DNA of 64,000 nucleotides from NCBI GenBank assembly GCA_017499595.2, contig CM039010.1, positions 930,001 through 994,000 of the forward strand, in the 5' to 3' direction. Positions 31,151-64,000 of the stretch are shown piece by piece (position 1 is the stretch's first letter; each line of letters starts with the position of its first letter). This DNA is from Psilocybe cubensis (Eukaryota). The notes beneath the pieces were generated by a model, which was not told the DNA's origin, made no database searches, and saw nothing but the letters and a program-made list of their open reading frames with translations. Position numbers and translations under genes: made by a program.

Positions 31151-31548
31151 GGCGGAAGGTCTGTTGGCTGTTTGCTGCCAACGTCTGTGGATGAGGTGCT
31201 CCCGTTGAGCATGCCATCCGGAAAACGCCGAGCTCGTTACTTCTACTCACGACTTCGTTTTCTGACCTTGTTTGATTCCTTACATTCAACATTTCGCTAT
31301 TTCTGGTAGACACGTACACTCTTTCAAGGTTCTTCTTATATGTGGTCGCAAGAAAGCGATTACATAGGTTGCATCAAATGTTTTGGATTAAGTGTGCTAG
31401 ATATTCGAATGATTCGAAGAAAAAGTCGAACAGTCAAAAAATGCGATAAAGTGTACATGCAAAACGACGAAAACTTAAAAGGACCCAAAAAAATACCAAA
31501 GCGAAACTGAAAAAAATTGGAAAAAAAAGTGTTTGCTAAGTAAAAGGA

Positions 31549-32792
31549 TCAGAAATCGTCGTCACCACCATCGTCTCCAAAGTCGTCGTCGCCGCCGTCA
31601 TCTCCAAAGTCGTCGTCGCCGCCGTCATCGCCAAAGTCGTCGCCTCCATCATCACCACCGTCGTCACCGCCATCGTCAGCACCGTCTTCACCGGTATCAG
31701 CAGAGTCGTCGCCGACATCGAGAGCAGGATCGTCAGCGCCGAGACCGTCGTCAGTGTCGTCGGTGGTATCGGTGGTGTCGTCAGTACCGTCAGTACCGTC
31801 AGTACCGTCAGTGCCATCCGTGCCATCGGTACCATCAGTACCATCCGTGCCGTCAGTACCGTCAGTTGCATCGGTGCCGTCGCTGGAGGCAGCGGCGTCG
31901 GCGGTATCAGTCGACGTAGGGTCGGTAGAAGTTGCAGCGTCAGACGTATCGGTCGATGTAGGGTCAGTAGAAGCAGCCGCGTCGGAGGTGTCGGTGCTCG
32001 TCGGTGCGGTCGAAGCAGCTTGGTCAGAGGTATCAGTTGACGTGGGGTCCGTTGGAGCAGCAGAGGCTTTATCGGCGCGTTTATCAGACAACAGTTTTGG
32101 ATTGTAAATTTAATGAAAAGACCCACCAGCAGAGGCAGAGGCATTGCTTCCACTAGATCCTGACGATCCCTTTGCTATTAAAAAAGCAAAGTTAGATCGG
32201 TATTAAGCATTAAAAAGAAACAAAAATATATCACTTACAAGCACTGGACCCACCAGAGGCGGCTTTCTGGGCAGCGGAGGAGGCCGCCTTTTGCGCAGCA
32301 GCAGCAGCCGCTGACTGGGCAGAGGAAGCAGCTGACGAGGCAGCCGATGCTGAAGCCTTGTTGCAAGCGCCGACAATCGCCTGCCCGACAGTGTTAGCCT
32401 TATTGAGGAAGCCCTTGACAGAAGCGATATCCTTGGTCAGAGTAGCATCCGTGCTAAATAGATTTGAATATTTAGGAGCTCAGCATTGTGATATCAAAGA
32501 TTAGGACATACGTGTTGATCTTGTTGAGGACACCAAGGGCTGAGCTGAGGCCAGATACGACAGCCTTAGCAGATGCGGAACATTCGATGTTCTGGAGGAT
32601 GGAAGCGAGATCACGCTGTTCAATTGTGCGCACATCGAATGGCTGAGCAATAGGCGCTGGTTAACGAAAATTATATCAGCGTCAAATCTGGTCTCCAACC
32701 CAGCTCAAGCGAGGCTACATACCAGCAAAAGTTGACTGCCACAAGCAAGCGGTGAGCACAGTGGCAAGGAGAGTTCTCGGGATCCGAGTCAT
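31549..32792 (-). CDS. Secreted protein with small helical domain, Ala/Ser linker and extremely acidic repeat tail
   Basis: Signal peptide MTRIPRTLLATVLTACLWQSTFA; two Cys in a helical segment; last exon has AASTDPTSTDTSD x4, (DGT) x about 10 and DDFGDDGG x4. Confidence 0.78.
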
Positions 32793-35274
32793 AGTAGTGT
32801 TGTTATAAAGAAAGTCGACTTTTGAAAAGAGTTGTGCACAAACGAATCAATCGAATAAACCAAAACAATGAAAATAAAAAAGGAAGGGAAGAGGACACCA
32901 GGTCTCCTCTGGGGAACCAAAATGAAAGATGAATATTAGGGAAGCAAGAGATTCTGTGCGTTTATATGCTTTTCCTCAGCCCCTGCTCCCCTGCTTGACA
33001 AGCACGGAGGTACCGAAAGACCCACCGATCGACAGGCACTAGACAGGATGTCATAGGCATCAGATGAACAATCACACATTATGGAGCTGGAATGCTTAAA
33101 CCTGCCAAAACTACGCTGGTAACAAGCGGAGAAGGTGTTCGCTCGTCAGCCCAGGGAAAAGGGTGCCGACTGTTGACTGATTGCAATGCCATTTCCGCAA
33201 TTAAATTATGAGATTGAGGGTGCCAGATTAAAGATAGCTCAACTCCTGGATCAAAATAGAATCCAGCTGTTAGTATACTCAATAGGAGGGAGAACGTATC
33301 ACGAACCTGAACATAAACAGCATCAAGCATTCCCAGGGAGCGTCCTGAGCATAACCGTTCTCGATGGACTACTTTAACCTCTGGGAAAATCACCCAAAAC
33401 CAAGCTGTATTGTTTCTCTTTGGGAATGTCGAGTTAGAGGAGAGTAGCGTCAGCCAGCGTCAGTTTAGTTGAATAAGTGGTTTTGTAGGCGTGACAACCA
33501 AATGAAAAGTGGGCGCAGAAGCAAAAATGATCGACAATAGAATGTAGCGCGCGAATTCCAGCCTGCGCTCTGAGATTCGAGGTCCAGTGCAGTCCAGTGT
33601 GGAGAAGACTTCATCAATAGCACATATGAATCGCACAGGTTCCAACGTCGAATTTCGAGTTAGCAACGACCTGTCATGGATTTACAGCTTCATCACTGCC
33701 CACCCCTGCGAAGTTTGACGCTTCCACATGCATCGAATTGAATGTCGAGAAAAATATATGCTCGAGTAGACGGTCTATAATAAGAAAAGGCGTTTGTAAT
33801 CACACAGTCAATCTATGAATATCCCATACTGTAAGAATAGATAAAAACCCCTATAGCTGGAGTAGATCAACAACGAAACCTCACCTAACTTAGCTGTTGA
33901 CGTCGATCGATGCGATGCGGTGGAATGAATGGTGGCCTAGGCAACTTCCCTCCCAACCAGTGGACACTGGCGTTGTGCACCATCTGTATGACTGTATGTA
34001 TGCGCCCTAAAAGTCTGACGAGCGGCTTTCACGATGTTACATGACCAGTCTAGCGCTGATGACAAGACAACAACTCGATGGGCGAATAGAAAGTGCGGCA
34101 AGGACTTTGAACCTTTTGAGCAATGTAAGCCTACAATAAGAGATAACTGAAGAAGAGAAGCTTTCAATCTTTTGTTACTTTCATCAAAGATCTAGAGACT
34201 TACTTGAACTCGACTTGACCCAAATTTGAAAATCGGTCAAGTAGGATTGAATGGCAGGAAAAGGTGATGTAGCTCATCATTGATGCACTGTTCCGGTCGC
34301 TCAGAGAAATATAAATGGCATACAACTTGTTAAAGGTGCATTCTTTCGCGTTGAAAAAGGGATCAGAATGAACATTATGCAAAGTTCACGTTCGTGCTCA
34401 ATGTTCAAGGAGGAGTGAACGTAGTGTGACAATTCGGGTCACAAAATCCGTGAATGCGGAGTTTGAATGTGAAAAGTCTGCCGGCGAAGACCGTTCAAGG
34501 TGCTTCCGTGCCACCAACGTGCCACTGACAATTTTTTCACCATCGATTCGGAGTGGCACTTGAGTGGCACCAAACGGTATCGCTGCAATACCCTGCGTTC
34601 AACGCACAAGGCTTTTAGGGACATCTAAGACTCTATACCTTTGCTTTTGATGGGACTTCAACAGATGTCGTTGGTCAGTTAAAATCTTTGTTCATAAGTT
34701 GAAACGACGCATTCACGCCTCAGGATGCTCTTCAATCGAGCATGGTAATGTTGTGCCACTCTCCTTTTTTCTAGTAATATCAGTACCGGGACGATCACTA
34801 CATACGTCGATATGTGGCATACAGATCATTGTGGATTCAACCCCTCCTTAAACAGATGATTCTTCAAGCGTGCATAGAAAGACCGATAACCTGGTAAGAG
34901 AAACGAGGTTACTTTCAACATCGTGTTTCCAAACAGGCCTTCTAATTCCACAGCTACGCGTAGCGAGGTGTCAAAAAAAGGTATTAGGACCCTACCGTGA
35001 GGACGGTTCAACTCCTTTCCGTGAAGACAATGAGGCATTGGCAAGAAAATGATTCGTTCTGACTTGGGATTTGATGGATAGTATCTCATTAGAAGCTTCG
35101 GGAATACCCAGGAGTGGCCATACACAGCAGGGTGGCCCTCGTCCTGCAGTCTCATTCCAGAAATGGAAAATAATTGGATTGTCATATGGTCCGGTGGAGG
35201 TCCTAAAATAGAACACGAGTCAAGGTCGGCGGGCCCCCGAGGTGCCCCCGTGTTGTGGCACACAATCCTCAAGG

Positions 35275-35280
35275 TATAAA
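35275..35280 (+). promoter_or_regulatory. TATA box candidate for the first transcription unit of the repeat
   Basis: TATAAA followed by a CT-rich tract; conserved in copy 2. Confidence 0.4.
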
Positions 35281-35391
35281 TCAGGCCGTCTTGAAAATTT
35301 CTCGTCCACCGTCCCCACCTCTGCTCCCTCCACACACCGCTCGACGACGCCTCTGCCTTCCTCCTTCCGCCCACGCATACACGACTACCCT

Positions 35392-35657
35392 AACGCCCCC
35401 TTCGGTTGGTGAAAGATTTTATCGCTTCTCGCTTGCGAGTCAAGCAGACATAATCTTCACCGTGTGTTTTTATACTTCAGCTTCCAACGCCCCCCTTCGG
35501 TTGGTGAAAGATTTTATCGCTTCTCGTTTACGAGTCAAGCAGATATAATCTTCATCGTGTGTTCTTATGCTTCTGCTTCCAACGCCCCCCTACGGTTGGT
35601 GAAAGATTTTATCGCTTCTCGCTCACGAGTCAAGCAGATATAATCTTCACCGTGTTT
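35392..35657 (+). repeat. Tandem 94-95-bp repeat x about 2.8, each unit a long hairpin
   Basis: Units start at 35392, 35486 and 35581; core GGTGAAAGATTTTATC-GCTT-CTCG-N4-CGAG-TC-AAGC-A-GAYATAATCTTCAYC. Mirrored at about 63586-63851. Confidence 0.9.
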
Positions 35658-35854
35658 CGCATCACTGAGTTCTATGTAAGGGAGATTCTTTGTGGTATCT
35701 ATTATACTTCTGCTGCCAGTGTCTCTTTGTGCGAGGTTGTGCTATGCTGGGTTCTAGGTATGTCTCGCATTCGCAATGATTTGGTACATCCATACTTACA
35801 CGGGTTCACAGTTCTGCTGGGATACGATATCTTGCTACGTCTACCTCCTCGTCA

Positions 35855-35998
35855 AATCGAAAAGAGCTATATGCCACAACAAAAAGAGCCACAGGGCCAC
35901 ATCGAAAAGAGCCACGGAGCCACATTGAAAAGAGCCACAGAGCCAAAGTGAAGAGCTCATTGAGCCATCGAAAAGAGCCATAGAGTCACATTGAAGAC
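35855..35998 (+). repeat. Short degenerate repeat array (GAAAAGAGCCAC core, about 22-bp period, 5-6 units)
   Basis: ATCGAAAAGAGCTAT, AAAAAGAGCCACA, ATCGAAAAGAGCCACG, ATTGAAAAGAGCCACA, ATCGAAAAGAGCCATA; mirrored at about 63243-63388. Confidence 0.85.
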
Positions 35999-38672
35999 TC
36001 ATAGTGCGTGCTTGTGTTTTCGACCTTTCTGTCTTGGATATGCTTTCAATGCCTGGGTGATCGTCGTCCTTGCTCTGGGTTGTTGGTTCTGTCAACATCT
36101 TCCGAAGACATCGTCAATGCCACAGTGAAGGTGCGTATCCCAGGACCGGTGTGGGGCTTTGACGCAGCTCCTGGGCTTACGACGAAACCTGAGGAGTTTA
36201 CACTCCGATATGGCTTCTGTCAACCAACGCCACACCACTCTGACCTCCCGCATAGTGTGGCCAAACGGCAAAGCCATTCCCCCTAATCGAAAGGGGAGCG
36301 GAAGGGATCGTTGTGGTCTAGCAAATGGTGAGTGTTGATATCTTCTCTGTAGTGCAGTGCTCAGCTGGCTTTTCAGGTTCTTAAACTTTCTCTAAGCCTG
36401 CCCGATGAATCTGCTTGTATGCGGTACGTTTTTTGTGTGTCATTATATTTTTCCATATTTATAATACTCTGGGTACAGTTCACTGCTCCTCATCTGTCGT
36501 GTCCTATCCCCCTCGCGTGGACAACGACACCTACCACTCTCAGTCATGCCGGAACACGGAGAATTGAAGTGGTAAAGGTCCTGGATGCTTCATGCATTCA
36601 GTTGACACTGTCGGTCAGCGATAACCACATCGCTGATTGGCAAAGCTTGCGAGACGGACCTCTGATCCGTCTGCAAGACTGAGTTTTCTGTACTTGGCCG
36701 GTGAGGACAATTACCTCAGCCGGCCCACTTGTTAGAATGTAAGTAAGTCAATTATGTACTGCAAACATCAAGTCGATTCTTCCAACTGATTATTCACATT
36801 TCTTCAGGTGATTCGTATAAGCGTATGAACCTGGACTTGGCTTTTAAGTACGTACAGCCGCCCTTTCCTCTGAAGATATATATGTCTAACCTTTCTGCCA
36901 CGCAGGTGTCGAAAGATTGTTCCAAGGCTCCTGCCTAACAAAATCTCCCCAAGAGACTCATGATAGGTGGTTGCAGCATAATCTACCACTCGTTGCCTTT
37001 GAACGAGCTGGTAAAGGTTCGCAGGATACCATCGTATCTGCGAACACTGCCGCTCTGATCGAGGCATCGGATCAGTTGCCGACGTCAGAGCAGCAAAGCC
37101 TTCCTCGCGGCTGACGGGTTGGAAGGATGGTTTCCATCCACCTATCAATCAGAAATTTCTTGATTGATAAAGACAAGTCGATTGTCCTCAGCGACAAGCG
37201 GCTGGTATTTTTTCCGGCAGGATGTGTCCGGTGGGACACTTGTGCTCCCTTGTCGTTGGGCTGCTGGCTTGTAGGTTGGCTTTGTCAATATGGCAAGGTC
37301 AATCGACTAAACGCACAATAGAATCACACATTTACATCATCTGTTTCTTTGTCTAGGTATGTGTTCTTACCGTTAACACATGGTCACAAATCTAACTATC
37401 TCTCTAGGCTAAGTTATCCTCCGACAGAGGTACGACTTGGCTATGTTGCGAGGAATTGCTACTTTTATTCACTCCATACAATTACACTACATTTTGCCGT
37501 AACGAATAATGAATTTTGGAACGTCCCTCTGTTCTTCAAAACGTTAATATGTTCTTTAAGTCCGTCATTAATTGTAAAAGTTATTTTGATTTAAAAGGGA
37601 GTGATGTGATGCATCGAAAAGGTGTAGGAGAATGGAATCCGTCAGAGAATGAAAGACCTGCCGCTCTTGATTCGCAGACTCTGTAAACTGTAGAGGAAAT
37701 CCACAAAGAGGGTTAAATTGCATGCGTTCCCGAGTGCCACGATCCACTTGAGCGCGAAGTAGGGCCAGGTCGGCGATCGCCGAAAAAAGACGCGACAACG
37801 GTAATTGCCGTGAGAAAATGACGCCATACACACAAGACGCGCCACTCAAAACGGCACTTGGGAATATTTCGAAAGCTTGACCCAAACTTGATCGACAAAA
37901 CCGAAACCGACATCCATCTGAAATCGAAACGGTATTGCAACTTCATATCACTCTACGGTTGCATTGCACTAGGTACTAGGGGGAGAACCGTGGTACAACT
38001 TGCCAGCAGTGGGTACAACGTGTCGGGCAACTAGCACAGTCCTGTTTGAGTGAGTCATAATTCTGTCAAAGGACGGGTTCCCAGCGGGCGATTGGCTAGT
38101 CATATTTTTTCAGTCGTTGATGGATGGACTGGAACGATCATATATGTTAAAGGCAAGTTGGTTCCAGGTTATTGTATACATCAAAATGGCATGTAAAAAG
38201 AATACCGAAGAACTCAGAAGGCCTCGGATTGTCGGCTGCCAGAAGTCCGGCCCTGCAATTTTTTTCTGAAACAATGACAAAACGCCTCCAGAAATTCCCA
38301 CCAAATTTCCATGGAGGCTTTTAACCTGCCTAGATGCGCATGGCCGAGGAACAGAAGAGAGGCACTATCAGTACCCCGTGAGCGCAATCTAACTCCTTTC
38401 TTCTAAGGCCAACGAAAAAAGACAAACGATGTTCCTTTATTATGCGTTATCTGATTGATACTCCATCGAAGCATACGGAGGCCGCCCGCACGTCTACGGG
38501 CTCGCATAGCAAAAATTTATTTTCTAAATCAGGTAATTTCCTGTGGTTGGAAACATGGACTGCCTGCCGTCATGTCAAGAACCCTGAAATAGAACGCGTG
38601 CCGAGAAAGCCGTCTTACTCATTGTGTGTGGCCTTGGGAGAGTGGCTGACAGCGGCAGGCAGGGGCTGGAAG

Positions 38673-38679
38673 TATATAA
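38673..38679 (+). promoter_or_regulatory. TATA box candidate for the structured spliced transcript
   Basis: TATATAA about 70 bp upstream of the first donor (38748); conserved in copy 2. Confidence 0.45.
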
Positions 38680-38704
38680 CATGTTGCATTTTCGTCAGCC
38701 TCAT

Positions 38705-39820
38705 CCCTCAGCGAAATGCACCCCCAACTCCTCCGCGAAAGAGGAAGGTAAGACGACGACTGCATCACGGACTGGGCCACACGGCCTGGTCCGTCGATTT
38801 AATCGTCGTCAGCTATTCTATGCCAGACCCCGCCGCCTGATTAAAAGGTAAGAATTCCTGGTATCATTTCTTCAGATTCACAGACTGACTGACACATTGT
38901 GCTATGACAGGCTATGGCTTCTGGTTTGATCCAAAGGCAAGTCCATGGTTTCTTCAAGGCGGTATTGTTCGGAATACTTACAATTCCATCTTGAACAGAT
39001 ACTCGGCTCACATCCACTCGCGAGCCCCGCACTACCGCCCTTGGTGTAGCCAAACGGCTGCACTTTGGGCGGTAAAGGTCCCCAGAATCGCAGACGGGTT
39101 CTGGGGATACTGTCGGAAGAAGCGTTCGAAACCGAACGCTTCACCGGCAAAGCTCATTGGGTGGCCAAACGCCGCCCATGAGATCGATGACCGGCTGGGG
39201 CCCAACGCCCTAGCCGGTCTTGTGCAATCTATGTAAGTTGCACTTGCTTTACTCATTTTGAGCATCTACTTAATCGCACTCTTCCTTTCTCTTAGGTGTC
39301 TGAATATGTCTCACGAGGAAACTGTCTATGTACGTGTGCTCGCATTCTTTTATTCACATCTCTTACTCACTCTATCGACAGGTTATGTGCTCTATGGCTG
39401 CAATGAATCGTCTGAAATGCAATACTAACCCTACCCGTCGCGCGACTGCGGTCGCACCCCTACCGTCCCCCGGAGAGACCCCGCGGGTAGGCGGGGTCTC
39501 GCTGGCAAGAGAGCTGGACGGTAATGTAGGCGCCTCTCGAAATCGATCGAGGCGCCACTGTCGCATCCGCGCGCCTTCCGGCCGGATCGACAAAGCCCAC
39601 CATCCGGTGGGAGTTTCTTTTCTAGAAAGCCAGCAGACGCCTCACGGCGTCGCGCAGGCCCTACTACCCTGAGCCGCCTCTGGGTAGTAAAGGCACACGT
39701 ACTCGACACTCGTCGAGTACGAATTTTTTTCCCATACACCGGTGTGCCGCCTTGTCGTGGCGTATGGGCTAAACGCATTCGGTTCCACTTGTGGGATCAA
39801 ATGCGGCCAAGAGCACACCA
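38705..39820 (+). ncRNA. Candidate spliced, highly structured long non-coding RNA
   Basis: Introns 38748-38812, 38848-38910, 39233-39295 and 39330-39381 (GT..AG). Exons 38911-39232 and 39382-39820 are serial stem-loops with G-U pairs on this strand. The first ATGs give only a 19-aa ORF. The start coordinate is a guess. Confidence 0.5.
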
Positions 39821-40384
39821 CCTTCATTGATTTCCTACTTTCCTGTGCTTCCTCTTATTCCTCCGCTCAGCTCTAACCATTGACAGCATTTGAAGGTGAG
39901 TCAGATGTAGTATATTTTATCTTCCATTATACTGGTAGATAGTTGTACATACAATCCAATGATCAACTATCTTGCATGCAAAATAAATTAACCCTGAGGA
40001 TAAGAAATATCTATTGCTCATTGTTTAATTAAGACAAAGCAAACAAGGGAAAGTATACCTGTTGAATCAAATGCACCATGTTCTTTTTCAAGTTGGAAAA
40101 TTACTTGTCAAGTAAGAGCACATCCCGACTCACATCACGGAGAGTCATGTTTAAATTTTAAGAAACATTGTCAAGTAACAATAAGAGGAGGAGATGGTGT
40201 CTTATCGTTGAATAAAGAAATGCAACCAAAGAAAGAGGAGGGATTAACCTGTATCAATCGAATTGCAGCGCTTCTTAGTTAACCAGTCGGAATGGTGAAG
40301 TTGGCATGAATATTCATGTTTGAGTCGACAAATTCAGCAATAAACCCTTTCCCACAAGCTTCCGAAATGGCAGCAAAGATGCGC

Positions 40385-41798
40385 TCACGCTGCCTTGAAC
40401 ATCTCAGCACCTAACAATTGCATTCTCACCTCATGTTTCCTTCTACGTTCCTCCATATCTGCCTGCAACTTCAAGCGTTGTAACTCTGCGGCTGCCTGCT
40501 TCTCCTGCCCCTCGTTTTCCAGTTGTTTTAGCTTGATCTTCAGCTCCAGCATGCGATAGTCGCTTTGTTTTCCGGGTGCAGAACAATGTCCGTGTTTATA
40601 AGACTCGTGCCGGGTTTTGCTACGCGTAGTTCTCGAGCTAGATGTTGATATTTCCGAGACAGAATGGGAGTTTCTCCGCTTGACTGATACATGCGGTGTG
40701 TGGCTCCTATTAATAAAAGCAGGTTGTCATTAAATAATTCCTGGGACGAGGCAACGAAGAGGTTTTGGGCTCCGAGATACGCACTTTTTGATGCGTCGCC
40801 GGTGCTGTGATGGCTGGCCCCCTGTTTCCCCTTCAAATCCAGAAGCTTCACTATCCGAACTCGAAGGCGACATCTCGTCACTGTTCTGGAGAGCGCATTA
40901 ACACGGTTTGGAATGAGATACACTGTATCACCGGCAGGCTTACAGTTGACATCCCGTGTGAAGGAGCAGAAGTAGTACGCCTCCTTCTCCTCCCACCCGA
41001 TCTTTTAAGGTTACCCCTTAAATACTGGTTAAAGGTTGGGTTATTTCTCCAGTACTTGTGTAACCTGTCCCATAGGTATTCGGGAGGCAAAAATTCAGTT
41101 TCTGCTAACGTGAGGACGAGAAATGGGTTAGTAAAAAGTTAGAAAGAGCTAAGTGAAGGCTTATCTTGTTGCATCTTACCCGGTATTTCTCCAACCTTCC
41201 AAGTACCTCTCGGCTTAAATTCAATATCATCCAGTCGCAGAATACTATCGAGTTTGATTTCTGGCTTAGACTCCATAATTTCTTTGTTAACAGTTTGGTA
41301 CGTCTTCTTCCACCTGGTAATGTGTCGTTACAAAGAAGGATATGTGGTTTATCAACCGATGGTCATAACACGTACCTCTCATGGATGTGATACTTTACCT
41401 GCATAGAAAACGGCATAAAGATCTTGTTCAACCTCTTGTCAATATCCGGCACATTTCGAACAAGCTGCTTTTTCAGGTGTGCGAGGGCATCCTCCAGATT
41501 GCCATGAATACCGTGTGCTTGAAGCCTTTGTGGAATGGTGCCGTCGTCGTCATCCGTTGAATAGAGATGCAGCGCAGCACGAGCGTAGCATGCTCCCAGG
41601 GTGAGAGTTTCGCCCCGGATGGGTACCGTGACGTCGAAAATGACGTCTCGTTCCTCGGGATGTCCATCTAGCCAGTCGAGCAAGTCAATGGCGCGCCGTG
41701 GGTTGTCCTCAAATCTGAAGTACACTAAGTAGAAGATTTCACGTTTGAAGCTAGAAGACTTGAATCAGAAAAAATCACTTACGACCAATGCCGGGCAT
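40385..41798 (-). CDS. Hypothetical agaricomycete protein (helical N-domain, LHxYWxxxPxFN motif, C-terminal coiled coil)
   Basis: Exons splice in frame: MPGIGLYFRFEDNPRRAIDLLDWLDGHPEER...VKYHIHERWKKTYQ...YLWDRLHKYWRNNPTFNQY...MLELKIKLKQLENEGQEKQAAAELQRLKLQADMEERRRKHEVRMQLL. Confidence 0.7.
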
Positions 41799-44316
41799 GT
41801 GCAGAACTCCCTCTTTGTTAGGTTGGATAAACCAAAGACGGCCCCTGGCTTATATAGTCTACAAAGAAACGAGGTCAAGTAACGTATCATCATTGAATAT
41901 ATGCTACACGTCATCATCCTGTCAGAGAAGTTAACGTACAAGTTGACCAATGTCGGGCAAGATTAGGGAAGAAAGCAAATTTGAAGTGAGCTGGAATGAA
42001 GGTGACGTTATTGAACTTTAATTCCGCTAGCAGTAGGTTGACCGACCAGAGTGAGGGACAGTGACCAAAGTTACTGAGACAGGGATGAAACTTCGCGCCT
42101 GGTGCACCATGTAGATAAACAGGCTTTATATGTGCAATTGGATGAATCATACTCCTCCCAGTAAGTTTGAAGAAGAGGAAAGTAAGCTCACCGACATTCA
42201 GATACATGAGTTGATTCACACAGCGAACCTATTCTATCACATTCACCGGCACCGTCAAGTTTTCCCCGTTCACGCATACACATATACAAGCGAGAACATC
42301 TTCGAGGTGATGCTAAGACTGCACAAGCGTGTTGCGTAAACCTATAGAGGGAGAACACTTATACAAGGATCACTACGTGAGGTGACCGTGACGAGGGAGG
42401 GCTGAGCTGGATGATAGGTTTGGAATTGGGGTTGAATGTGGACACAGAGGATGTGGTGGGAACTACAGACGTGCGTAGAGAAGTTGTGGGGCCCTGAAAG
42501 GAGAGGAAAAGAGGAGGAGAAGGAAGATGGCAGTAAGAAGTGCTAGATGAGCAGCTTCGACGCTGCAGAATGCTTGTTGATAAAAGCAATGAGTCGGTAT
42601 ACGGGAGTTTCTTCGAGTAAGGACGAACATTTACTAACCTGTCAATATATCCACACATAGACAACGACGTCCTCCACAACTCAGTGTTCTACACCAAAAC
42701 ATAAGGATCGAGACATGACAGAAAAAGCACCGCCAACGCATTCTTCTGAATCACATGGAACACTGGGCAAACTTTGTAGTAAGAGTGGTGTCGTTTTCAT
42801 TGTCGTGGCTGTAAAGTTGAAACCCTTGATGATGTTCGAGGGTCAAATCAAGACTCGAGACTCGTGTTCGTGTTAATTAAATTAAAGTTGTTTCTCTTTT
42901 TACTGTAGACACACGGATCAGAAAAACTTTCATCAAGCATGTCATGACTCGCTCGATCGCCACCACTCAGCCACTTGCGTTAACATAGTCTCTGTGGGGC
43001 TCGATGAACCTACAATGAACTGTGTTGTTTTTCGAGTTCAAATCAAGTCCTTAAATTACTTTACGCTTGAATTGGCAATTCCACTACTAGACAAATGCTA
43101 CTCTGCTGGGATACAGTATGTCATTTTTTTACCTCTTCTATCGTTACTGAAGCATTTGTACACTTAGTATTAGCTATCCGAGTCTCGGAAGTCGTAGTCC
43201 GATAACGTTTGTTGGGGCCCTCGGACTGATGCTGTGTCAATGTGATTTCCATTAGTTGAAAACACCAACGGCAAGTTCCTATCTCAACTGATTTCAAGAT
43301 TCCAAGAATACAACGACCGCGTCTCTCGAACCCGCATGGCACATGTACAACATCTACTCACACATTATGTTCCCGAAGGCTGTTGTGGAAATCCCAGGAC
43401 GACTTCAAAATTGATGACACACGTCCAAGGTCGAATCATGTTCTGAAAATAGGGGTTCACTGAGAAGTATTCGGAGATACAGCCACCCGGTGAACGACTC
43501 AGATCTGCAGAGAAAATGCAGGACGAAATCACGGCACAACGGGCGCTTAATTAGCACAGTCGTTTAAAGACGTACATGATGGTTAAACAGGTAGAGATTG
43601 AATATGTTATACTGCACGTAAAGGAAGATCTGATTAATATTTAGCTATACACACATCTCCAGAACAATGATGGGCGGGCTTGGTTAATGTGTGCACCAGC
43701 ACAACGGGGGAGTTTTGCACAAGATGGACAGCATGATAAATTGTACCGGCGCATTGTTCTATATATGCCTCTGTATTCTCACAGTGATGTTATCTTCCAC
43801 TTGGTCGTCTCATGGTACAAACGTATCAGTGATTGGGTCAAAGCAGAACACACTGAATATGTTCCTGACTGCGCCAGTTTATCTTCGCACTGTTTCCACT
43901 CATCAAGTCAAAATTGGCGGGGCACTGACAGATGCAGGTATAGATTATAACCTCGCGCTTAAAGAATTTAGTGACAATCGATTGGCCAATATCCTTGAAA
44001 CGATTGTGCTCTGGTCGTACCCTTGAGACTTGCAGTATTGCTAGAAATCATGGATATATTCGGAAATGTTGTTTATTTATTCTATCAATCGAGCAGTGGC
44101 TAGGGTCAAGCATCAAAGTGGCGGAACTATTTGGACTTTGCCGCCACTCCCCTAGTTATGGACATGTAGCAAAGATTTTGATTGTTGTACTATAATCCAA
44201 GACGGTAAAGTGGAACAAAGCAACCCATATGTAGGAGGCAGTGCAAAGAGAAAACAAATAAATAGAATCGACAATAGATGAGAGCAGCGTTTGTTACGAG
44301 AAAGAAGGCAGAATCC

Positions 44317-45682
44317 TCAGCCATTATTGGTCGGGTACAACAGTTCTCGGTGGAGATCAATGGAAGGAGTTTTACGAAGAAATTCATCAAGAGTCTTCAG
44401 GGCAGTGTCAGCTGTCATGCGGTCCTGAGGATTAGGTACGCAAAGAGCCTGCCAAAGTCTGTCGACCTCATCCAGCCCGGTCTTATTGGAGTGTCAGTAT
44501 GATTTATACAGACAAAATTTTAGCTTGACTACTCACCAACAGAAAAATGCGTAGATCGTTTCCCAACTCCCACATATCCAATTTGAATGGGCAATATGGC
44601 TCCTTCGTTCTAAGTTCCGGCGCAATACTACGACCGAATTGTTCTAGATCCCGATGAAACGATGTGCACACCCTATCCGACTCTAAGGAGTCCGCTGGAA
44701 AGTCAACTGCAGTTTCAAAATCGATCATGTATACCCTAGGACGAGCCACGGTTGTGCGTTTAGTCAAAGACTCGGGCATCCATTCAACCATAAAGTTAGG
44801 TAGATATAGATCCTGTATATGATATTCAAAAGACGAAACGCCTTCAAGTAACAGGAAACCTACACGATGCGCAATAAGGTTTTGGTGGAGATATGCAGTT
44901 GCCTGTAGAAATTTAGAAATTTTGGTAAATATGTGTCGAATATGGGGAATAAACATGAACCCACCTCAAAAGCCTGGAGCACCATGTATAAGGCGTCTTC
45001 AACGGAGCATGACTCTGGATAGAGAAGGACCTCATGAAGATCGAAAATAAGCTTTGGGACAGCTATAATGACAATATCCTGGAAGTAAACCTCGTGTAAA
45101 ATAGGCAGAATGTGGTTGCTGCTTAGCAACTGGTCTGGAGGGGATGCAAGTCGCTTCATAATTCGCAGGTGGGTCTGTCCTTCGCCTGATAGGGCAACTA
45201 CACGAAGAACGACGTCGCGAATTCCATTCATACGAGCAGCGTGGTGAAGGCACACCGTTATAAAACTAAACCTCCGCCATCTTACCCATGATATATTTGG
45301 GGCGCTGTGCGAAGTCAAGTATAAGAAATTATCTCCCTGTGGAGGCAGATCATAATCCCAAAGCTGTTGCCCGGGGGTGGTTGTCCACAGCTGAAAATTA
45401 TGCTGTTCGAGCAGAGGTCGGAGTTCGTCCCATACTTCTACGTATTTTTCGAAGCTGAGAAATTTCCAAGTTTCGAGATCTTTTGGTAGCTGAAATTCAA
45501 GATAGATTATTCCTGAGCCTAGCGTGGTGAACTGAAGGACAACATACCTTTTCACGACGAGGTGATTTGGGGACCTTTTTCCTGGACTGTTTGATGGAAA
45601 GGAGAGATATAGCACTGGCTGTCACAACAAAGGTGAAAGCACCGAGGACCAGTAATGAGGTGGATTGTGAGCCGCGAATCAT
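44317..45682 (-). CDS. Atypical protein kinase, AgaK1-like (copy A)
   Basis: Five exons: N-terminal hydrophobic anchor, DVVLRVV, SNHILPIL, YLHQNLIAHR/DLYLPNFMVEW, RPRVYMIDFE, IAPEL, YCPFKLDMW, DRMTA. Confidence 0.85.
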
Positions 45683-46089
45683 TCAAGTTGAACCAAGCGG
45701 TATGGGTTGTGGGAGAATTTAAGATTGGTGTTGACGTACGCATGTAGTAGCAACACTTAAACCAAGCTTAAACCCTAACCTAATCACAATAGCCAAACAA
45801 ATAAACGAGAATGCGACATTCCTACATTAGGTATTCATGTGACGCTTCCCTGGTTATGCCGCCGGGTTTACAGTGTTTTCCGATGAGCAAAAATCGGAAG
45901 GCTATATGCAGTGGTTTAGATGATGTAGAACTCAATGGTTGGGAAACCGTAAGAAACGGTAGACAATCAATATATTTATGGCACAATGACCGTTAGAAGG
46001 AGCTTGAAAACTGCCGCCGCCACTGGCCAGTGGCCACGATAGTCCCCAGGATAACTGATTGCAATCAAAAAGCGGAAAGAGTATCACAA

Positions 46090-46745: not shown

Positions 46746-48656
46746 GCTAGATAGAAGCGTTGAAGGTATGCTTAAGATGGGGGCTAAAAGGGGAGTCGAA
46801 TGACACAAGTCCTCTACCTTTGGTAGACCTATTTATGTGTTCTACGTTTTTCATATCGATTGTCGAATGCACCATTACTGGTCCAATCGATAAATATCTG
46901 ATGAGTCACAGATCCATTCCATGACTTCCATGCTATGGGAGTAATATGTGTTCAAGCCTCAAGGCATTTCTAACCCAGTTGAAGCTAAACATCTCCGATG
47001 TGCGACATTTTTTAGCGGGCTGCGTCTTCGGTGCTTTTCTGAACCAACGAAAGGTTCCCCACGCCACTGAATAACTTGCCACTGACCAATTATACGCTGT
47101 ACGAGTCTCAAAGAACCGAAGACTTCATGTTCACAATAATTTCATTGTATATAGTACTGAGTAACCTAATCACATCCTTTAAGGCAATATAGTTTTGCTT
47201 ACATGGCAGCAACATTTAGTCAAATTTTTATAAAACATTATCTGAAGGCCGTGAGTAATTCTTGATGTAGTACTTTTACTATCAATACAGCTCCCAGGAA
47301 GCAGACACGTTGCCTTTGTTAGCGAGAGGTTCTCACCGCTCTGCCCTTATTCTACTTCTGATTATACCCCGGGAAGCGCTTCTTCGCATAAGAGCAGAAT
47401 AGAAGCACTTGTTTAAGAAGAGATACATGAGTGTGTATACACACTGAAAGTTGACCATACAGACGACAAAGTATAATGACGTCACCCCTGGTATTCGGGC
47501 GCCTAAGTGTTAATGAGCTTTGAGCAGCATGTTGGGGGCAATATTCTCTTGAAGACCTAATATGCCTCTATGGACAAGTAGTATTTAGTGAGGAAAACTC
47601 TTCTTCGATGCAGTGGCGGCGTGTGTAAGGCATGTGCGCGTGGTTGTGTGTGCAAACACATTGTGAGTCACAGCTGATAGATGTCCGAATTCTCCGTGAT
47701 GCCACCAAAAAGGACCACTGAGACTCTGAGTCATACGTTAAGTCAGTTGGAAAAGTTTTTGTTCCCTGAGAAAAAAGGTGCACCAACTATCTTAATTGCT
47801 GTGCCCGTTCTATAAGATCCTCGGCCACGAAGCTCAATACAAAGATCGGGGTCATATTGGAATATTTTAAGTTGAACGTAGAAATGGTATAGTAAGATAA
47901 GGAAGTACCTTCTGCTTCTCTTTTCTTTTCTATCACGCCATTGTTGGAGCATTTGTGTGCTTGGTTGCATGTTATCCCCAGGGTCGTACATATCTGGCAT
48001 AGGCCACGACCTTCAGACGACCTCAGTTGAATCAAACTTGTCGAAATCCGAACGCGAGAAGATGAGGAGTATGGGAAACATACGACGCAAATGGAATGGA
48101 CTCGAGTGACTGAGAAGAAGGATTCTGATTAAGAAACGGAGTTGCCGAGGAATTAACGAGGAGATACGAGGTTTTTCATGATAGTCTACAATGAATGAGA
48201 CTGATAGGATGGAATGGGATGGACGACGAGTAAATGACCTGATTCATGGGGAGATACATGCTTGATGACCTTGAGAGTCATGTCGAAGGGCGGTGGGCGC
48301 TTGAAATCCTCCACTGTTTCATGTTCTATAGCAATGTAAGACGCTTGTTACTACATATATAATCTCAAACAATTGGAATTTGAATGAGAATGAGGGACAT
48401 AGTTTTCATTGCAACACGGACAATAGCTCTCTGGTACTAACTGAGCCTGTCAACTGGAGGAACGACATTACAATCTACCTTGGGAAACTGTATTCCTATC
48501 CGAGATCTCAGATCAAACATCCAAATTCTCATAGACAACGCCAAAAAATTAGGTAAACCCGCCCATACGTAGGTAGCCAGTACAAAGAGAAATCAAATAA
48601 ATTCAATCGACAATAGATGACAGCAGCTTTCGGTTACGAGAAAAATGGCAGAATCC

Positions 48657-49996
48657 TCACTCATAATTGGTGGGGTCCAATATCTTTTTGTGGAGATCAA
48701 TGGAAGGAGTTTTACGAAGAAATTCATCAAGAGTCTTCAGGGCAGTGTCAGCTGTCATGCGGTCCGGAGGATTAGGTTCGCAAAGGGCCTGACACAGTCT
48801 GTCGACCTCGTCCAGTCCGGTCTTGTTGGAGAGTCATTAATACTTATACAGACAAAATTTTAGCTTGATTACTCACCAATAGAGTGATACGTAGATCATT
48901 TCCCAACTGCCACATATCCAATTTAAAAGGGCAATAGGGCTCCTTCGTTCTAAGTTCCGGCGCGATATAGCGACCAAATTGATCTAGGTCCCGATGAAAC
49001 GATGTGCACATCCTATCCGACTCTAAGGAGTCTGCTGGAAATTCAACTGCAGTTTCAAAATCGATCATGTATACCCTAGGACGAGCCACGGTTGTGCGTT
49101 GAGTCAAAGACTCCGGCATCCATTCAACCATAAAGTTAGGTAGATATAGATCCTAGATATGATAGTCATATAAGAAGAAACACATTCAAGTAACCGGAAA
49201 CATACACGATGCGCAATAAGGTTTTGGTGGAGATATGCAGTTGCCTGTAAAGGTTTTTGTAAATATATGTCGAATCCGGGGAAGAAACAACATGAACCCA
49301 CCTCAAAAGCCTGGAGCACCATGTATAAGGCGTCTTCAACGGAGTTCGACTCTGTATAGCGAAGGACCTCACGAAGATCGAAAATAAGCTTTGGGACGGC
49401 TATAATGACGATATCCTGGAAATAAATTTCGTATAAAATAGGCAGAATGTGGTTGCTGCTTAACAACTGGTCTGGAGGGGATGCAAGTCGCTTTATAATT
49501 CGCAGGTGGGTCTGTCCTTCGCCTGATAGTGCAACTACACGAAGAACGACGTCGCGAATTCCATTCATGCGAGCAGCGTGGTTAAGACACGCCGTCATAA
49601 CACCGAATCTGCGCCATCTTACCCATGACTTATTTGGCGTGCTGTGTGAAGTTAAGTAGAAGAAATTATCTCCCTGTGGAGGAAGATCATATTCCCAGAG
49701 CTGTTGCCCGAGCGTGGTTCTCCACAGCAGAAAATTATGCTGCTCGAGCAGAGGTCGGAGTTCGTCCCATACTTCTACGTATTTTTCGAAGTTGAGAAAC
49801 TTCCAAGTTTCGAGATCTTTTGGTAGCTGACAATACGAGGTAGATTATTCCTGAGCCTAGCGTGGTGAACTGAAGGACAACATACCTTTTCACGACGGGG
49901 TGATTTGTGGACCTTTTTCCTGGACTGTTTAATGGAAAGGAGAGATATAGCACTCGCTGTCACAGCAACAGTGAAAGTACCAAGGATCAGTATCAT
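48657..49996 (-). CDS. Atypical protein kinase, AgaK1-like (copy B)
   Basis: Same exon structure and motifs as copy A; in-frame deletion of about 8 aa at the N-terminus; no stop seen in exons. Confidence 0.85.
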
Positions 49997-53123: not shown

Positions 53124-56100
53124 ATGTCGTCCACAGGGTACCAAATGTCTACTCCCGCACGTTCGCGTTTGTCCGCACCCGCACTCGAAGGTGGAGGGTC
53201 GGACAATACCTGCTGTCAACATGACGACAACAAAGAGAAAGGAACAGAGGTCGAGGCAAAGCGGGATGCAGATGTAGAGTCAGTGTACATCGCCATCGAG
53301 CCTCCAGCGTCCAGTGTTACATATCCAGAGCAGCCTCCTTCACAACCCATTCCACCGCCCTCGTTTGATGCCTCGCAATTCGGGATCATCCTCCGCCACC
53401 AACGTCTCCGACCGCCTGACAATTCGGGCCTCAAGCTGCCGCCACCACATGCCACCCCCTCGCGCTTTGTACACCTTTCAAACGCGTTCGAGTTTGCTGG
53501 GTGGGGGTCGTCGATTCGAGTCAAGTTGACACAGCGAGAAAAGGAGGTGGGGGAGGAGAGGGTGAAGGTGGAGCGGGAGGAGAGAGAGAAGGGCCTGGGG
53601 CAGTGGACTGCTAGTGCTCTGGCGGGGAACGCGGTGCTGGGGAGCGTCTTCTACGCGTTGCCAGCTGTTGTGGGTGTTGCGGGGGTATAGTGAGTGTTTG
53701 GGCTCTTCTTTTTGACAAGATAGACTTACAGTTTTACAGCTCCCCCATCTCACTTTTCATTGCGGCACTCGTTCTCTTCCTGTGGCGGCCCATCATGGAA
53801 GAGCTTGCGGCGGCGCTGCCCATCAGCGGCGCACCGTACACGTACATGTGAGCTTTTCTTGCTTCTGTTTTCCGTGTTTATTGACTTTTGTAGCTTGAAT
53901 ATATCCACAAAATCCCTTGCACTGGTCACTGCTGCGCTCCTGCTGCTTGATTTCGCGTCGACGGCGATCGTGTCAGCGGCCACGGCCGCTGCATATCTCG
54001 CTGGGGAGCTCGGGTCAGGTGCGCGTTGCACTCATCGCTAATTCACCTCGAATCTGACTTTTCAGGCGACTCGGGACTCCCGTTCCCGACGTGGGTCGGC
54101 GCGGTGCTTGTACTCGTGCTCTTCACGCTCGTGAGTCTGTGGGGCGTACGCGAAAGCGCGCGGATTGCACTTGGTGTGCTGGGTGTGCATGTGCGTTTCC
54201 TGTCTTCATACCCATCGCAGGTGTTGATCAATTCACAGGTGCTAACGATGCTTGTGCTCGCGATCACAGCGTGCGTACACTGGGCGTCTATCGGCACTGC
54301 ACAGCTCCGCGCGAACTGGGCTCTTGGTGGTGGCCCGGGAGAAGGACGGAGTGCGGGGGCCATTGCGAAGCAGGTGTACTACGGCGTGTGTCTGGGGATG
54401 TTGGGTTTGACTGGGTTCGAGTGTACGTTTCCTCTCATTGAGTTCGATTCAATGACCATTTAATTCTTTTACAGGTACGCCATCGTACGTCTCGCGCATC
54501 AAGCCTGGACGATTCCCGCGCGTACTGCGCAACCTGCACCTCCCATCGATCGTGCTGAGCACAACTATGATGCTTCTCGTCCTCGCGATACTGCCAATGG
54601 ATGTGGCATTGCGCGGGGAGAACGTACTGAGTGTGTTGGCCGAGGTGGTGAGTTATATCTCTGTGGTACTTCACTTGACGCATGGAACTGATTAATTGAC
54701 AATGTATTGAACTTGTGAATAGTCGGGAGGGAGGTGGCTGCGTCTTTGGATCGTCGTGGACGCGGTTATCGTTCTGTGCGGAGGCGTATTAACAGGTATG
54801 CGCTTTTATACACGAAAAACGCGTGTATATTCACCCATCCGTCTCCACGTACAGGTATTCTAGCTGCGTCAGAGCTGCTCACCCAGCTCGCACAGCACCG
54901 CGTTCTCCCATCTTTCTTTCTTCTCCCTCTGCGCCTGCCTTTCAGACGGCCCAACCCTCTCCCTCGGCTTCCCACCCCTCCTCCGTCCGCCTCCCCCATC
55001 ACCACACCTGTCTCCCCAATCTCAAATCCGACACCCAGCTCATCCCCATCCCCAACACCTCACATCGCGATCCTGGTTTTCTCCCTTTTCAGCGGGGCGC
55101 TCTACGCAAGTGCGCTTGGCAGTCTCAGCGTCATTTCGGAGATGTTTTCCCTTGTGTGGGTGTGCGTGATGGGCGTGTTCCCGGTTGCTGGCATGCTTTT
55201 AAAATTTGAGCGGGGAAGACTGGTACGAGGGGTTGGTGTTGGAGTGGAATTGTGTGCTGTGCGGAACTCTGGGGAACGGATGAGGGAGAGGGGAGGTGAA
55301 GATGAACAGGTGGAGCAGGGAGCGAAAAGGGGAGTCGGGGGAAGAAGGAAAGGAGGGGAGAGGAAGACGAGGCTTCTTGTTATTCTCGCTGCGCTTATCG
55401 TCGCGCCGCTGGTCTTTGCGGGGAATGTAGCGTATAACCCTAAGACGGCTGGGTAAGTCCCTTTCGCACTTTTTTTTACTATTTTGCGATTGCTTTCGAA
55501 ATCATACAACATAACTTGTTGTTTACTGGTTGCCCTCGCTTTCACATTTTTTTCGCTTCTCTCGCATGAGCATTGCATCCACATTTTCTTATTGCCCTAA
55601 ATACTCATATTTACACCTTCTTTCACGTAGCTACTTCTCCGCCTACTTCATCGGCATCCTCCTCTTCTTCTCCGCAACGCAGAACAAAGTTCACCTGTTG
55701 CGGTGGCTGTATTGGGTGTACGACCAGTACCCTTCGCTGCATGTGTGGCGGGTGACGTCTGCGTGGGGCGAAGGGCTCATTTCTCTGATGCGGCGACTGA
55801 AGCGACAGCCAGTGTGTATACTCGTTAAAAGCGATGAGGTACGTTTTTCGTTTTTGTGAAAATTTTGTTAGTTGGCATGAAGACTGCTGATACAAATTTT
55901 TTGATAAAGATTAATAGCTTGTTTCATATGGTTATGTATGTGAGGAAGAACGAGGAGACGTCATGTTTGAAGATTATACATTTTTATGAGGAAGAGAAGG
56001 AGATCCCATCTGAGTTAGAGGCAAACGCGAAAAGTGAGCTTTGTTGTTAATGCCATACATACATTCGGATTTTGACCGCCTTACGAACCTGAATAGTTCT

Positions 56101-56358: not shown

Positions 56359-56681
56359 ATGTAAGATTGGGTCGACTGTGTATATTGATTGACTTCACGT
56401 ATATTAATGATGGGTACGATGGGGTGAGGCACGGATGCTACCATTGAGTTCTACATCATCTAAACCACTACAAATATGAGGCCTAAGGATATTGTACTGC
56501 CGCAGGATTGTCGTCTACTGGGCCATCAGGAGCCTTCCGATTTTTGCTCATCGGAAAACACTGAAAACCCGGCGGCATAACCGGGGAAGCATCACATGTA
56601 TACCAAATGTAGAAATGTCACCTTCTCATGTATTTGCTTGGTTTAAGTGTCCCACAACCCATACCGCTTGGTTCAACTTCA

Positions 56682-58040: not shown

Positions 58041-58439
58041 GACTGGGGATTCTGCATTCTCGCAACTCTCATCTATTGTCGATTGGATTTATTTGTTTTC
58101 TCTTTGCACTGCCTCCTACATATGGGTTGCTTTGTTCCACTTTACCGTCTTAGATTATAGCACAACATTTAAAGTCCTTGCTACGTGTTCATAACTAGGG
58201 GAGTGGCGGCAAAGTCCATGCAGTTCCGCAATTTTGATGCTTGATCGTATCCACTCGATTGATAGAATAAATAAGCAACATTTTCGAATGAGTCCATGAT
58301 TTCTAGCAATAATACAATTGTCAGGGGTACGACCAGAGCACAATCCTTCCAAGGATATTGGCCAATCAATTGTCACTAAATTGTTTAAGGGCGAGGTTAT
58401 AATCTATACCTGCATCTGCCAGTGTCCCGCGAGTTTGAC

Positions 58440-63500: not shown

Positions 63501-64000
63501 CACAACCTCGCACAAAGAGACACTGGCAGCAGAAGTATAATAAATGCCACAAAGAATTTCCCTTACATAGAACTCAGTGATGCGAAACACGGTGAAGATT
63601 ATATCTGCTTGACTCGTGAACGAGAAGCGATAAAATCTTTCACCAACCGTAGGGGGGCGTTGGAAGCAGAAGCATAAGAACACACGATGAAGATTATATC
63701 TGCTTGACTCGTAAACGAGAAGCGATAAAATCTTTCACCAACCGAAGGGGGGCGTTGGAAGCTGAAGTATAAAAACACACGGTGAAGATTATGTCTGCTT
63801 GACTCGTAAGCGAGAAGCGATAAAATCTTTCACCAACCGAAGGGGGCGTTAGGGTAGTCGTGTATGCGTGGGCGGAAGGAGGAAGGCAGAGGCGTCGTCG
63901 AGCGGTGTGTGGAGGGAGCAGAGGTGGGGACGGTGGACGAGAAATTTTCAAGACGGCTTGATTTATACCTTGAGGATTGTGTGCCACAACACGGGGGCAC
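59403..64000 (-). repeat. Copy 2 (inverted) of the 35242-39820 unit, runs off window end
   Basis: Reverse complement of copy 1 with scattered substitutions and small indels; begins TGGTGTGCTCTTGG. Confidence 0.95.

Follow-up and report, generated by a model that had tools for sequence, protein, structure and literature searches.

Tandem genes of Psilocybe cubensis as candidate sources of intron-containing hairpin-array RNAs

What kind of gene would carry a series of back-to-back hairpins set between short intron-like segments? The question is raised by positions 38673-39820 of a 64,000-nucleotide (nt) stretch of Psilocybe cubensis DNA (GenBank assembly GCA_017499595.2, contig CM039010.1, forward strand; the whole stretch is called the window), where the original prediction had placed a spliced, functional structured RNA. 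The structured hairpin locus is real, and stronger than that prediction reported. Three features of the gene, here named gene B (about 38.67-39.99 kb, + strand), had been missed: an inverted near-identical copy, an upstream paralogue (gene A) and a hairpin within the proposed first intron. The answer proposed here, held tentatively and with somewhat less than even confidence, is that genes A and B belong to a small gene family with introns, whose products would be hairpin-array scaffold RNAs that carry a clamped U-rich site.

Reading of the sequence and folding with a limited span showed all the previously listed stems at their positions, together with a TATA-like sequence where a TATA box had been noticed. 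The elements of gene B that carry the structure are as follows.

38673-38680, + strand: TATA-like box GTATATAA, upstream of gene B and retained in both copies.
38911-39232, + strand: exon 3, with five strong hairpins (39033-39219) and three weaker ones.
39033-39074, + strand: exon 3 stem of 17 base pairs (bp).
39078-39108, + strand: exon 3 stem of 12 bp.
39111-39149, + strand: exon 3 stem of 16 bp, containing the 10-bp GAAGCGUUCG stem.
39153-39182, + strand: exon 3 stem of 12 bp.
39189-39219, + strand: exon 3 stem of 13 bp.
39382-39820, + strand: exon 5, a structured domain in the predicted fold.
39461-39523, + strand: exon 5 stem with the 10-bp GAGACCCCGC stem inside.
39529-39556, 39596-39611, 39662-39689 and 39698-39721, + strand: further exon 5 stems, in addition to CCCAUAC/GUAUGGG.

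The exon 3 loops include AAAC (twice), CAAAC and CCAAC, with AAC present in four of the five strong ones, and the linkers GGUAAAGGUCC, ACUGUCGG and GGCAAAGCU are common to gene A. When folding energies were compared with shuffled sequences on both strands, exons 3 and 5 were more stable than every shuffle. The segment 39000-39232 reaches -142.9 kcal/mol on the + strand (z -13.3) and -124.8 kcal/mol on the - strand (z -7.7), none of 200 shuffles being as stable in either case; for 39382-39820 the values are -216.5 kcal/mol (z -9.6) and -214.4 kcal/mol (z -8.2), respectively, with none of 100 shuffles as stable. Tiling of the whole window on the + strand (533 tiles of 120 nt) gave a mean z of -0.18 with a standard deviation of 1.31. 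A z below -4 was found in 9 of the 533 tiles, three of them in gene B and a fourth in its inverted copy; of the rest, two belong to gene A or its copy, two to Spt5 and one lies at 54721. A sliding scan located structure at 38720-38839, 38960-39259 and 39440-39860, and none in exon 4, in the introns on either side of it (3 and 4) or in the opening 60 nt of exon 5.

The two strands are not equivalent. The z score was lower on the + strand in 11 of 11 structured 120-nt windows, and three of the four large exons of genes A and B are 12-19 kcal/mol more stable on it. Exon 3 folds at -152.6 kcal/mol on the + strand and at -133.7 kcal/mol on the other, a gain of 19 kcal/mol, with eight G-U pairs and one A.C mismatch on + and four of each on -. 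Over 38740-39830, with the span limited to 70 nt, the + strand is more stable by 15 kcal/mol and the G-U pairs number 24 (+) and 30 (-); the two energies of exon 5 given above are nearly equal. The earlier argument that the imperfect pairs, mostly G-T on this strand, reveal the polarity of the RNA therefore survives for exon 3 and for the intron-1 hairpin, and fails for exon 5 by pair counts. Taken together, the fold models support a strongly structured gene B RNA, with the + strand preferred.

The fold scan of the whole window also brought gene A to light, at 36.4-37.4 kb and about 2 kb upstream of gene B, through flags at 36601 and in the copy of 37075-37194. Its parts are arranged as follows.

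36424-36478, + strand: intron-like segment.
36479-36738, + strand: hairpin exon, paralogue of exon 3 (-108.2 kcal/mol, z -6.9).
36739-36807, + strand: intron-like segment.
36808-36847, + strand: micro-exon.
36848-36905, + strand: intron-like segment.
36906-37356, + strand: 3' hairpin exon, paralogue of exon 5 (-170.3 kcal/mol, z -6.2).
37357-37407, + strand: intron-like segment.

On the - strand the two large exons fold at -95.9 kcal/mol (z -3.1) and -155 kcal/mol (z -4.8), respectively. The plan common to both genes consists of a large exon, an intron of 63-69 nt, a micro-exon of 34-40 nt, an intron of 52-58 nt and a second large exon. Seventeen nine-mers are common to the two genes (shuffle mean 5.2 and maximum 14 over 300 shuffles), and four in the comparison with the reverse complement. 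The kinship is visible solely in this architecture and in collinear short anchors, the stems between the anchors being wholly different. In the 5' exons the spacing of the anchors is kept, with GGTAAAGGTCC at 36571 in gene A and 39071 in gene B, ACTGTCGG at 36607 and 39109, and GGCAAAGCT at 36639 and 39146; those of the 3' exons are GATCGAGGC (37057 and 39545), TTTTTTCC (37208 and 39725), CCTTGTCGT (37248 and 39750) and CTAAACGCA (37307 and 39769). Linkers of the form AAAG(G/C)(C/U) were counted by hand about ten times in the two genes, against about two expected. At 37206-37215 gene A carries the U-run UAUUUUUUCC (UAU6CC) inside CAGCGACAAG/CUUGUCGUUG; a single-stranded U-run is held by a homologous helix in both genes, which in gene B is GCGAC/GUCGU.

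Application of RNAalifold to a MAFFT alignment of the gene A 5' exon with exon 3 of gene B gave 47 consensus pairs, of which 15 are changed on both sides, nine on one side and none is broken, a count inflated to an unknown degree because it comes from two sequences and from a structure derived from the same two. In a control with the 3' partners shifted by 1-3 columns, both-side changes numbered 0-2 and 36-43% of the cells paired. The alignment of the 3' exons was judged too unreliable and no pair counts were taken from it. Between the two copies of gene A, both stem changes in the hairpin 36697-36728 preserve the stem when read by hand (G-C to G-U, and U-A with a bulged G to C-G with a bulged A). 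Judged by these sequence comparisons, genes A and B are tandem, anciently related paralogues.

In the predicted fold, exon 5 is a closed domain. A 12-bp helix (39386-39398 with 39806-39817) closes it with a pair probability of 0.97-1.0 for the exon alone, in genomic context and in spliced context, and is followed by a 4-bp hairpin (39399-39402 with 39418-39421, probability 0.7-0.83), by AUA and by the nine-mer CUAACCCUA. The 3' part has the following single-stranded or unstructured elements.

39425-39433, + strand: CUAACCCUA, complement of 1.5 TTAGGG repeats, unpaired with a probability of 0.76-1.0.
39722-39734, + strand: single-stranded AAUUUUUUUCC (AAU7CC), within the helix GCGAC/GUCGU.
39821-39988, + strand: tail, in copy 1 only, with AATAAA at 39982-39987.

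The nine-mer starts 3 nt past the 4-bp hairpin, which stacks on the closing helix, and together with its two preceding bases it reads UACUAAC, a branch-point-like heptamer. Eight hairpins and the U-run lie between the strands of 23 bp of long-range helices (39434-39458 with 39741-39768, three of the pairs being G-U on +), and one more hairpin (39774-39805) lies outside them. The 37 long-range pairs compare with an average of 14.8 in shuffles, only a modest excess, which 5 of 150 shuffles also reach. A U-rich and then A-rich stretch occupies 39612-39629, and the U7 run itself lies at 39724-39730, with the AAU7CC still within the predicted closed domain, whose end is about 90 nt further on. The structure of the tail (39821-39990) is not significant (z -1.2 on +, 0.1 on -). 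The transcript probably continues to about 39985, position 39820 being a duplication boundary and not its end.

Variation between organisms sets the 3' part of gene B apart. Comparison of DNA contigs of organism C (run X9) with the window, four poorly supported rows being left out, gave 23 listed differences in 38783-39409 and none in 39410-39988; differences resume at 39989. The flanks of the invariant stretch differ by about 3.7%, and about 20 differences would be expected in it at that rate. This sequence comparison suggests constraint on exon 5 and on the tail of copy 1 (168 nt), because no difference is listed where about 20 were expected. Three exon 5 variants were seen, at 39644, 39772 and 39790 (X10/X11), all of them in loops or linkers. 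In run X9 a low-depth third variant contig of organism C joins at 39694 (39694-39820); upstream of this point its TACTACCC/GGGTAGTA hairpin is altered, keeping the stem through a U-G pair but with a different loop and without the inner GAG/CUC stem.

Both genes belong to a large inverted duplication. Comparison of the window with itself aligned 35242-39820 with inverted 64000-59403 at 97.1% identity over 4605 nt, the arms being separated by 19.6 kb and the repeat measuring at least 4.6 kb, as its second arm runs off the window end. The second copies lie at the following positions.

59403-60547, - strand: inverted second copy of gene B, with a different tail past 59403.
61879-62761, - strand: gene A exons repeated in inverted orientation, from the same self-comparison.

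The copy-2 tail starts with TATTCTTC, and the repeat boundary at 39820 falls three bases beyond the final base pair of the exon 5 closing helix. No difference separates the copies over 36842-37241 and 38842-39641, and the gene B copies differ at two positions over 38740-39820, 39644 (loop) and 39772 (linker); elsewhere the arms show up to 22 differences per 200 nt. On sequence grounds this patchy near-identity reads as gene-conversion tracts.

Such a setting invites the view that the hairpins are palindrome-rich DNA without function, a mobile-element remnant or a template-switch product with incidental transcripts. A long inverted repeat ends right at the locus, other duplicated genes are present in the region (three kinase-like copies and a permease fragment), the two strands of exon 5 match in stability, and exon 3 changes at about the flank rate between organisms. 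This view is nevertheless improbable in the light of several results: the scanned open reading frames (ORFs) around the unit hold no transposon protein domains, no hairpin sequence is repeated in the window besides the duplicate, in three of the four large exons G-U pairs give the + strand its extra stability, paralogues A and B are set apart by compensatory changes, the 3' exon stays constant between organisms, and the intron-like segments are ordered on one strand. A Helitron or other transposon end was also considered and rejected, there being neither a CTRR end nor transposon domains.

The four GT-AG introns proposed for the unit were recovered as four intron-like segments that match a simple fungal intron pattern on the + strand.

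38748-38812, + strand: intron-like segment 1, GTAAGA..CAG.
38848-38910, + strand: intron-like segment 2, GTAAGA..CTGAC..CAG.
39233-39295, + strand: intron-like segment 3, GTAAGT..TAG, unstructured.
39296-39329, + strand: micro-exon 4 of 34 nt, with a 40-nt counterpart in gene A.
39330-39381, + strand: intron-like segment 4, GTACGT..CAG.

Composition-preserving shuffles contain 0.65 such segments on average and 1 of 300 reaches four; across the window the pattern occurs 0.9 times per kb per strand. The first segment is itself a 28-bp hairpin (38747-38814, -38.8 kcal/mol, three G-U pairs on +). A diverged copy of the 50-nt core of this hairpin (38757-38806; six mismatches, two gaps) is present at another locus, in the DNA run X9 and in the run X10, which was guessed to be RNA.

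After the proposed splicing, a frame remains open over exons 3-5, which leaves room for a protein-coding gene. The frame of about 215 codons in the original prediction measures 217 codons (38841-39672), and its first ATG, at 39231, leaves 108 codons from the exon 3/4 junction onward. Pfam assigned no family to three ORFs over the exons, the single weak match being PP1_bind to a - strand ORF (E 0.04, far below the family cut-off), and a protein search returned eight candidates, none of them at E <= 0.01. Codon-type conservation, which would have spoken for a protein, is not the pattern seen: ten differences between organisms A and C within the exon 3 frame, counted by hand, spread 4/3/3 over the codon positions. 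The ATG comes after at least three short upstream ORFs and some 400 nt of hairpins with a folding energy near -150 kcal/mol, and in the 3' exon of gene A no + frame stays open for as many as 75 codons. With codon-type substitution, domains and homologues all looked for and none found, the analysis supports a gene B that is not coding-like, and a coding gene of either length is very hard to credit.

Two sequencing runs guessed to be RNA cover only the 3' end of the locus. In X10 and X11, two runs of one study, cover extends over 39746/39760-39930/39979 at a depth of up to 118 and is continuous through the GGTGAGT at 39895; a run X12 gave a single 40-nt match with eight mismatches. At copy 2, the matching RNA-like contig extends 1267 nt into the adjacent permease fragment. 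Cover begins at about 39746 in both X10 and X11, 13-14 nt past the U-run, and this start could be a processing site, the end of an opposite-strand transcript or an artefact. Were it a cleavage site, the transcript might be a precursor cut to small RNAs or other processed pieces, its hairpins serving as processing substrates and not as a scaffold. An array of discrete hairpins would suit such a precursor, and so would the diverged and expressed copy of the intron-1 core found elsewhere in the genome (in a run guessed to be RNA). Against it, the stems measure 9-17 bp and Dicer-type substrates are longer, the Rfam search returned no snoRNA (small nucleolar RNA) families and no snoRNA boxes were found, so that a processed precursor seems a rather remote prospect.

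The nine-mer of exon 5 raises a more serious alternative, namely that gene B encodes telomerase RNA (TER) or its spliced, polyadenylated precursor. Exon 5 would then be the template/pseudoknot domain, built of a core-enclosing helix, a boundary hairpin, the template CUAACCCUA, a second enclosing helix and the Sm-like AAU7CC; exon 3 would serve as a 5' arm that evolves fast, and gene A would be a duplicate lacking the template. CUAACCCUA is unpaired, in the sole unstructured part of the invariant exon, and stands beside a boundary-like helix in a closed domain. It provides the at least 1.5 single-stranded telomere repeats needed of a template, valid only if the telomere repeat is TTAGGG, and the telomere repeat of the organism is not seen in the window. 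Any of the six 9-nt telomere permutations occurs elsewhere in the window about 0.027 times per kb of strand, so that about 0.03 are expected in a 1.1-kb RNA. The AAU7CC agrees with the AAU5-6CY consensus reported from the 3' end region of Ustilaginales TERs (PMC10035886) and with the AAUUUUU of the Malassezia TER (PMC12506658); the order of 5' arm, template, U-rich then A-rich stretch (39612-39629) and U-run is that of Ustilaginales TERs; and the U. maydis TER is likewise cut from a capped, spliced and polyadenylated precursor (PMC9564094). In the full-text literature searched, as far as it was available, basidiomycete TER papers concern Ustilaginomycotina only and none treats Agaricomycotina, where the gene would thus still await identification.

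Other features of TER were looked for with little success. The P6.1 stem-loop of CR4/5 has 4 bp and an NUNGN loop (PMC3592445); a scan of 38690-40000 for it gave one match, at 39931-39943 in the unstructured tail, with about 1.6 expected by chance, and this match is absent from the minimum-energy fold of the tail. The P6.1 sequence given in PMC10035886 has no match within four mismatches, and the CE1-3 and P6.1-like motifs of Ustilaginales have no exact match, those with a single mismatch being at chance level. A manual search for pseudoknots gave helices of 7-8 bp, at chance level and in competition with strong local hairpins, and no convincing H-type pseudoknot with U.A-U triples. The Rfam telomerase models have no match in 38300-40200 at E <= 10, although covariance models could be interrupted by the introns of gene B. 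The U-run falls within the predicted closed domain instead of marking a mapped 3' end, AAU5-7CY occurs four more times in the window, and the nine-mer also reads as the branch-point-like UACUAAC. The architecture and the U-run are common to gene A, which has no telomere-template nine-mer, and are thus family features and not specific to TER. Gene B is not filed as TER because P6.1, a defining feature, was tested for and did not appear beyond chance; a telomerase role is rated unlikely but is the leading specific alternative, with more in its favour than the precursor or the non-functional DNA described above. Metagenome contigs searched with a 39-nt purine/pyrimidine-degenerate pattern around the candidate template yielded no stretch, and a search for related loci with a degenerate probe from the frame 39431-39796 (- strand) gave 598 pattern matches, none confirmed. 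Other interstitial telomere-like 9-10-mers occur in the window at about the chance rate, AACCCTAACC at 45771-45780, TAACCCTAA at 55435-55443 and CCTAACCCT at 59082-59090.

Set beside U. maydis UmTER/ter1 and the putative Malassezia TER, gene B would be alike in giving a long structured RNA, probably made by RNA polymerase II and possibly with a spliced and polyadenylated precursor, in its 9-nt telomere-complementary stretch with an AAU(n)CY U-run downstream, and in its hairpin-rich 5' region. It differs in having no P6.1/CR4-5, clear pseudoknot or CE1-3 motifs, in the absence of an upstream Emi1-type ORF (the first ATG-started reading has 29 codons), and in its introns inside the RNA body, its template-less neighbouring paralogue and its two gene copies. 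With Sm-class RNAs (the spliceosomal small nuclear RNAs, snRNAs, and the 3' end of yeast TLC1) it has in common a single-stranded U-run between helices, kept in both paralogues, and probably a TATA box and transcription by RNA polymerase II. Unlike them, its RNA would be about 1 kb long and spliced; it matches no snRNA model, and has a U-run followed by CC: the canonical Sm site (purine-A-U4-6-G-purine between stems) was looked for in both paralogues, and in each the U-run stands between helices and then continues with CC.

No known family accounts for the gene. At gathering score the whole 64 kb had no Rfam match, and at E <= 10 the region 38300-40200 gave four chance-level matches (E 1.1-3.1) that fall 25-83 bits under their thresholds. 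The original prediction had recognised no family, and Rfam agrees, telomerase, snRNA, RNase P, MRP, signal recognition particle and snoRNA models included. Long non-coding RNAs (lncRNAs) that serve as hosts or scaffolds and contain introns are multi-exon, with short upstream ORFs and a poly(A) signal, as gene B is predicted to be. Their structure differs from that of gene B, which lies in exons and not in introns, and the folding z scores of genes A and B (-6 to -13) are far beyond those of typical lncRNAs.

The scaffold reading of genes A and B can now be stated in full. Gene B would be the downstream member of a tandem pair that is present twice as an inverted duplication, and each gene of the pair would encode an intron-containing lncRNA whose 5' exon measures about 260-320 nt and whose 3' exon measures about 440 nt, both strings of hairpins. 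We infer transcription from the TATA box, removal of four introns, addition of poly(A) near 39985 and any protein partner. The RNA may serve as scaffold in a ribonucleoprotein that is not telomerase, with the hairpins forming a rigid, nuclease-resistant body. The protein-binding sites would be the parts conserved in sequence, namely the AAAG-type A-rich linkers, the AAAC-type loops and the A-U6-7-CC run, the last presumably held open near the 3' end by the conserved helix in the manner of an Sm/Lsm site.

Several results weigh against this reading, among them the inflation of the covariation count given above. Plain local alignment of gene A with gene B is not significant (score 25; shuffles 21.8 +/- 2.4, maximum 31). 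None of the four sequencing runs aligned contains a splice joint. X10 and X11 were guessed to be RNA and give cover without an assigned strand; neither covers the hairpin exons, which proves nothing, and no RNA contig lies over these exons. The near-identity of the copies (38740-39820 and 36842-37317) is no evidence of selection, because it is patchy, as gene conversion expects, and the U-run precedes CC and not the G-purine of canonical Sm sites. Finally, exon 3 differs from organism C at eight positions in 39042-39222, about the flank rate, distributed as follows.

39042 and 39143: two differences in a loop or bulge, classed by hand.
39098 and 39147 (G-U to A-U) and 39181 (A-U to G-U): three differences that keep the stem pair.
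39097 and 39193, with 39222 in a weak helix: two to three differences that break the stem pair.

This split between kept and broken pairs is close to chance for transitions in stems. The claim of a functional structured RNA thus stands as regards structure, membership of no known family, the non-coding character, the covariation between paralogues and the invariant 3' exon; splicing and transcription of the exons are the parts that the runs did not show.

The surroundings of the two genes are those of a eukaryotic, fungus-like genome, as judged from gene content: the ORFs of the window include Spt5, a BRO1/ALIX protein, a PH/PB1 protein, Yip1, an amino-acid permease and F-box-like proteins. 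The Atlas clusters closest to the Spt5 segment come for the most part from Basidiomycota. Two neighbouring 120-nt tiles in the Spt5 coding region (22081-22320) have a z of about -5 on the + strand, and at 31536-32174 a low-complexity segment keeps several frames open on both strands, with Ser/Pro-, Thr/Asp- and Val-rich translations. One gene is present in three copies about 90% identical (43903-45714, 48562-49992 and 56650-58443), with ORFs of 240-253 amino acids; Pfam found no family in the one ORF tested (44860-45621), and the region around these copies looks prone to duplication. The 3' part of the amino-acid permease gene is also duplicated (54707-55471 and 58440-59216, 92.5% identical), adjoining the copy-2 end, and a contig of 1328 nt from a run guessed to be RNA reaches from that end into the permease fragment. 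Each repeat arm also carries, towards its outer part, three tandem copies of a unit some 94 nt long (35392-35658 and 63584-63850). Downstream of gene B, a convergent neighbour ends at 40385-40726 (- strand) with a coiled-coil-like C-terminus, its stop at 40385 being about 400 nt from the gene B AATAAA. The idea that the locus is the 3' untranslated region of this convergent gene was rejected on the position of the stop at 40385 and on the absence of X10 cover from 40042-40300, a gap that is weak evidence.

More tentatively still than the scaffold reading itself, genes A and B may stand for an undescribed fungal class of spliced RNAs of about 1 kb (the literature on hairpin-array lncRNAs was not searched), whose exons would be arrays of short perfect hairpins with conserved AAAG-type linkers and a clamped A-U6-7-CC site, which would evolve by wholesale replacement of stems with the architecture kept, and which would form a small multigene family and the core of a ribonucleoprotein unrelated to known ones. 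Should gene B prove to be TER, basidiomycetes outside Ustilaginomycotina would gain their first point of entry to this RNA, in the form of a TER gene that has introns within it and a sister gene lacking a template. If gene B is something else, it would be a rare lncRNA with very strong structure and compensatory change, conserved introns and a likely protein-binding U-run, and a concrete candidate for a new ribonucleoprotein.

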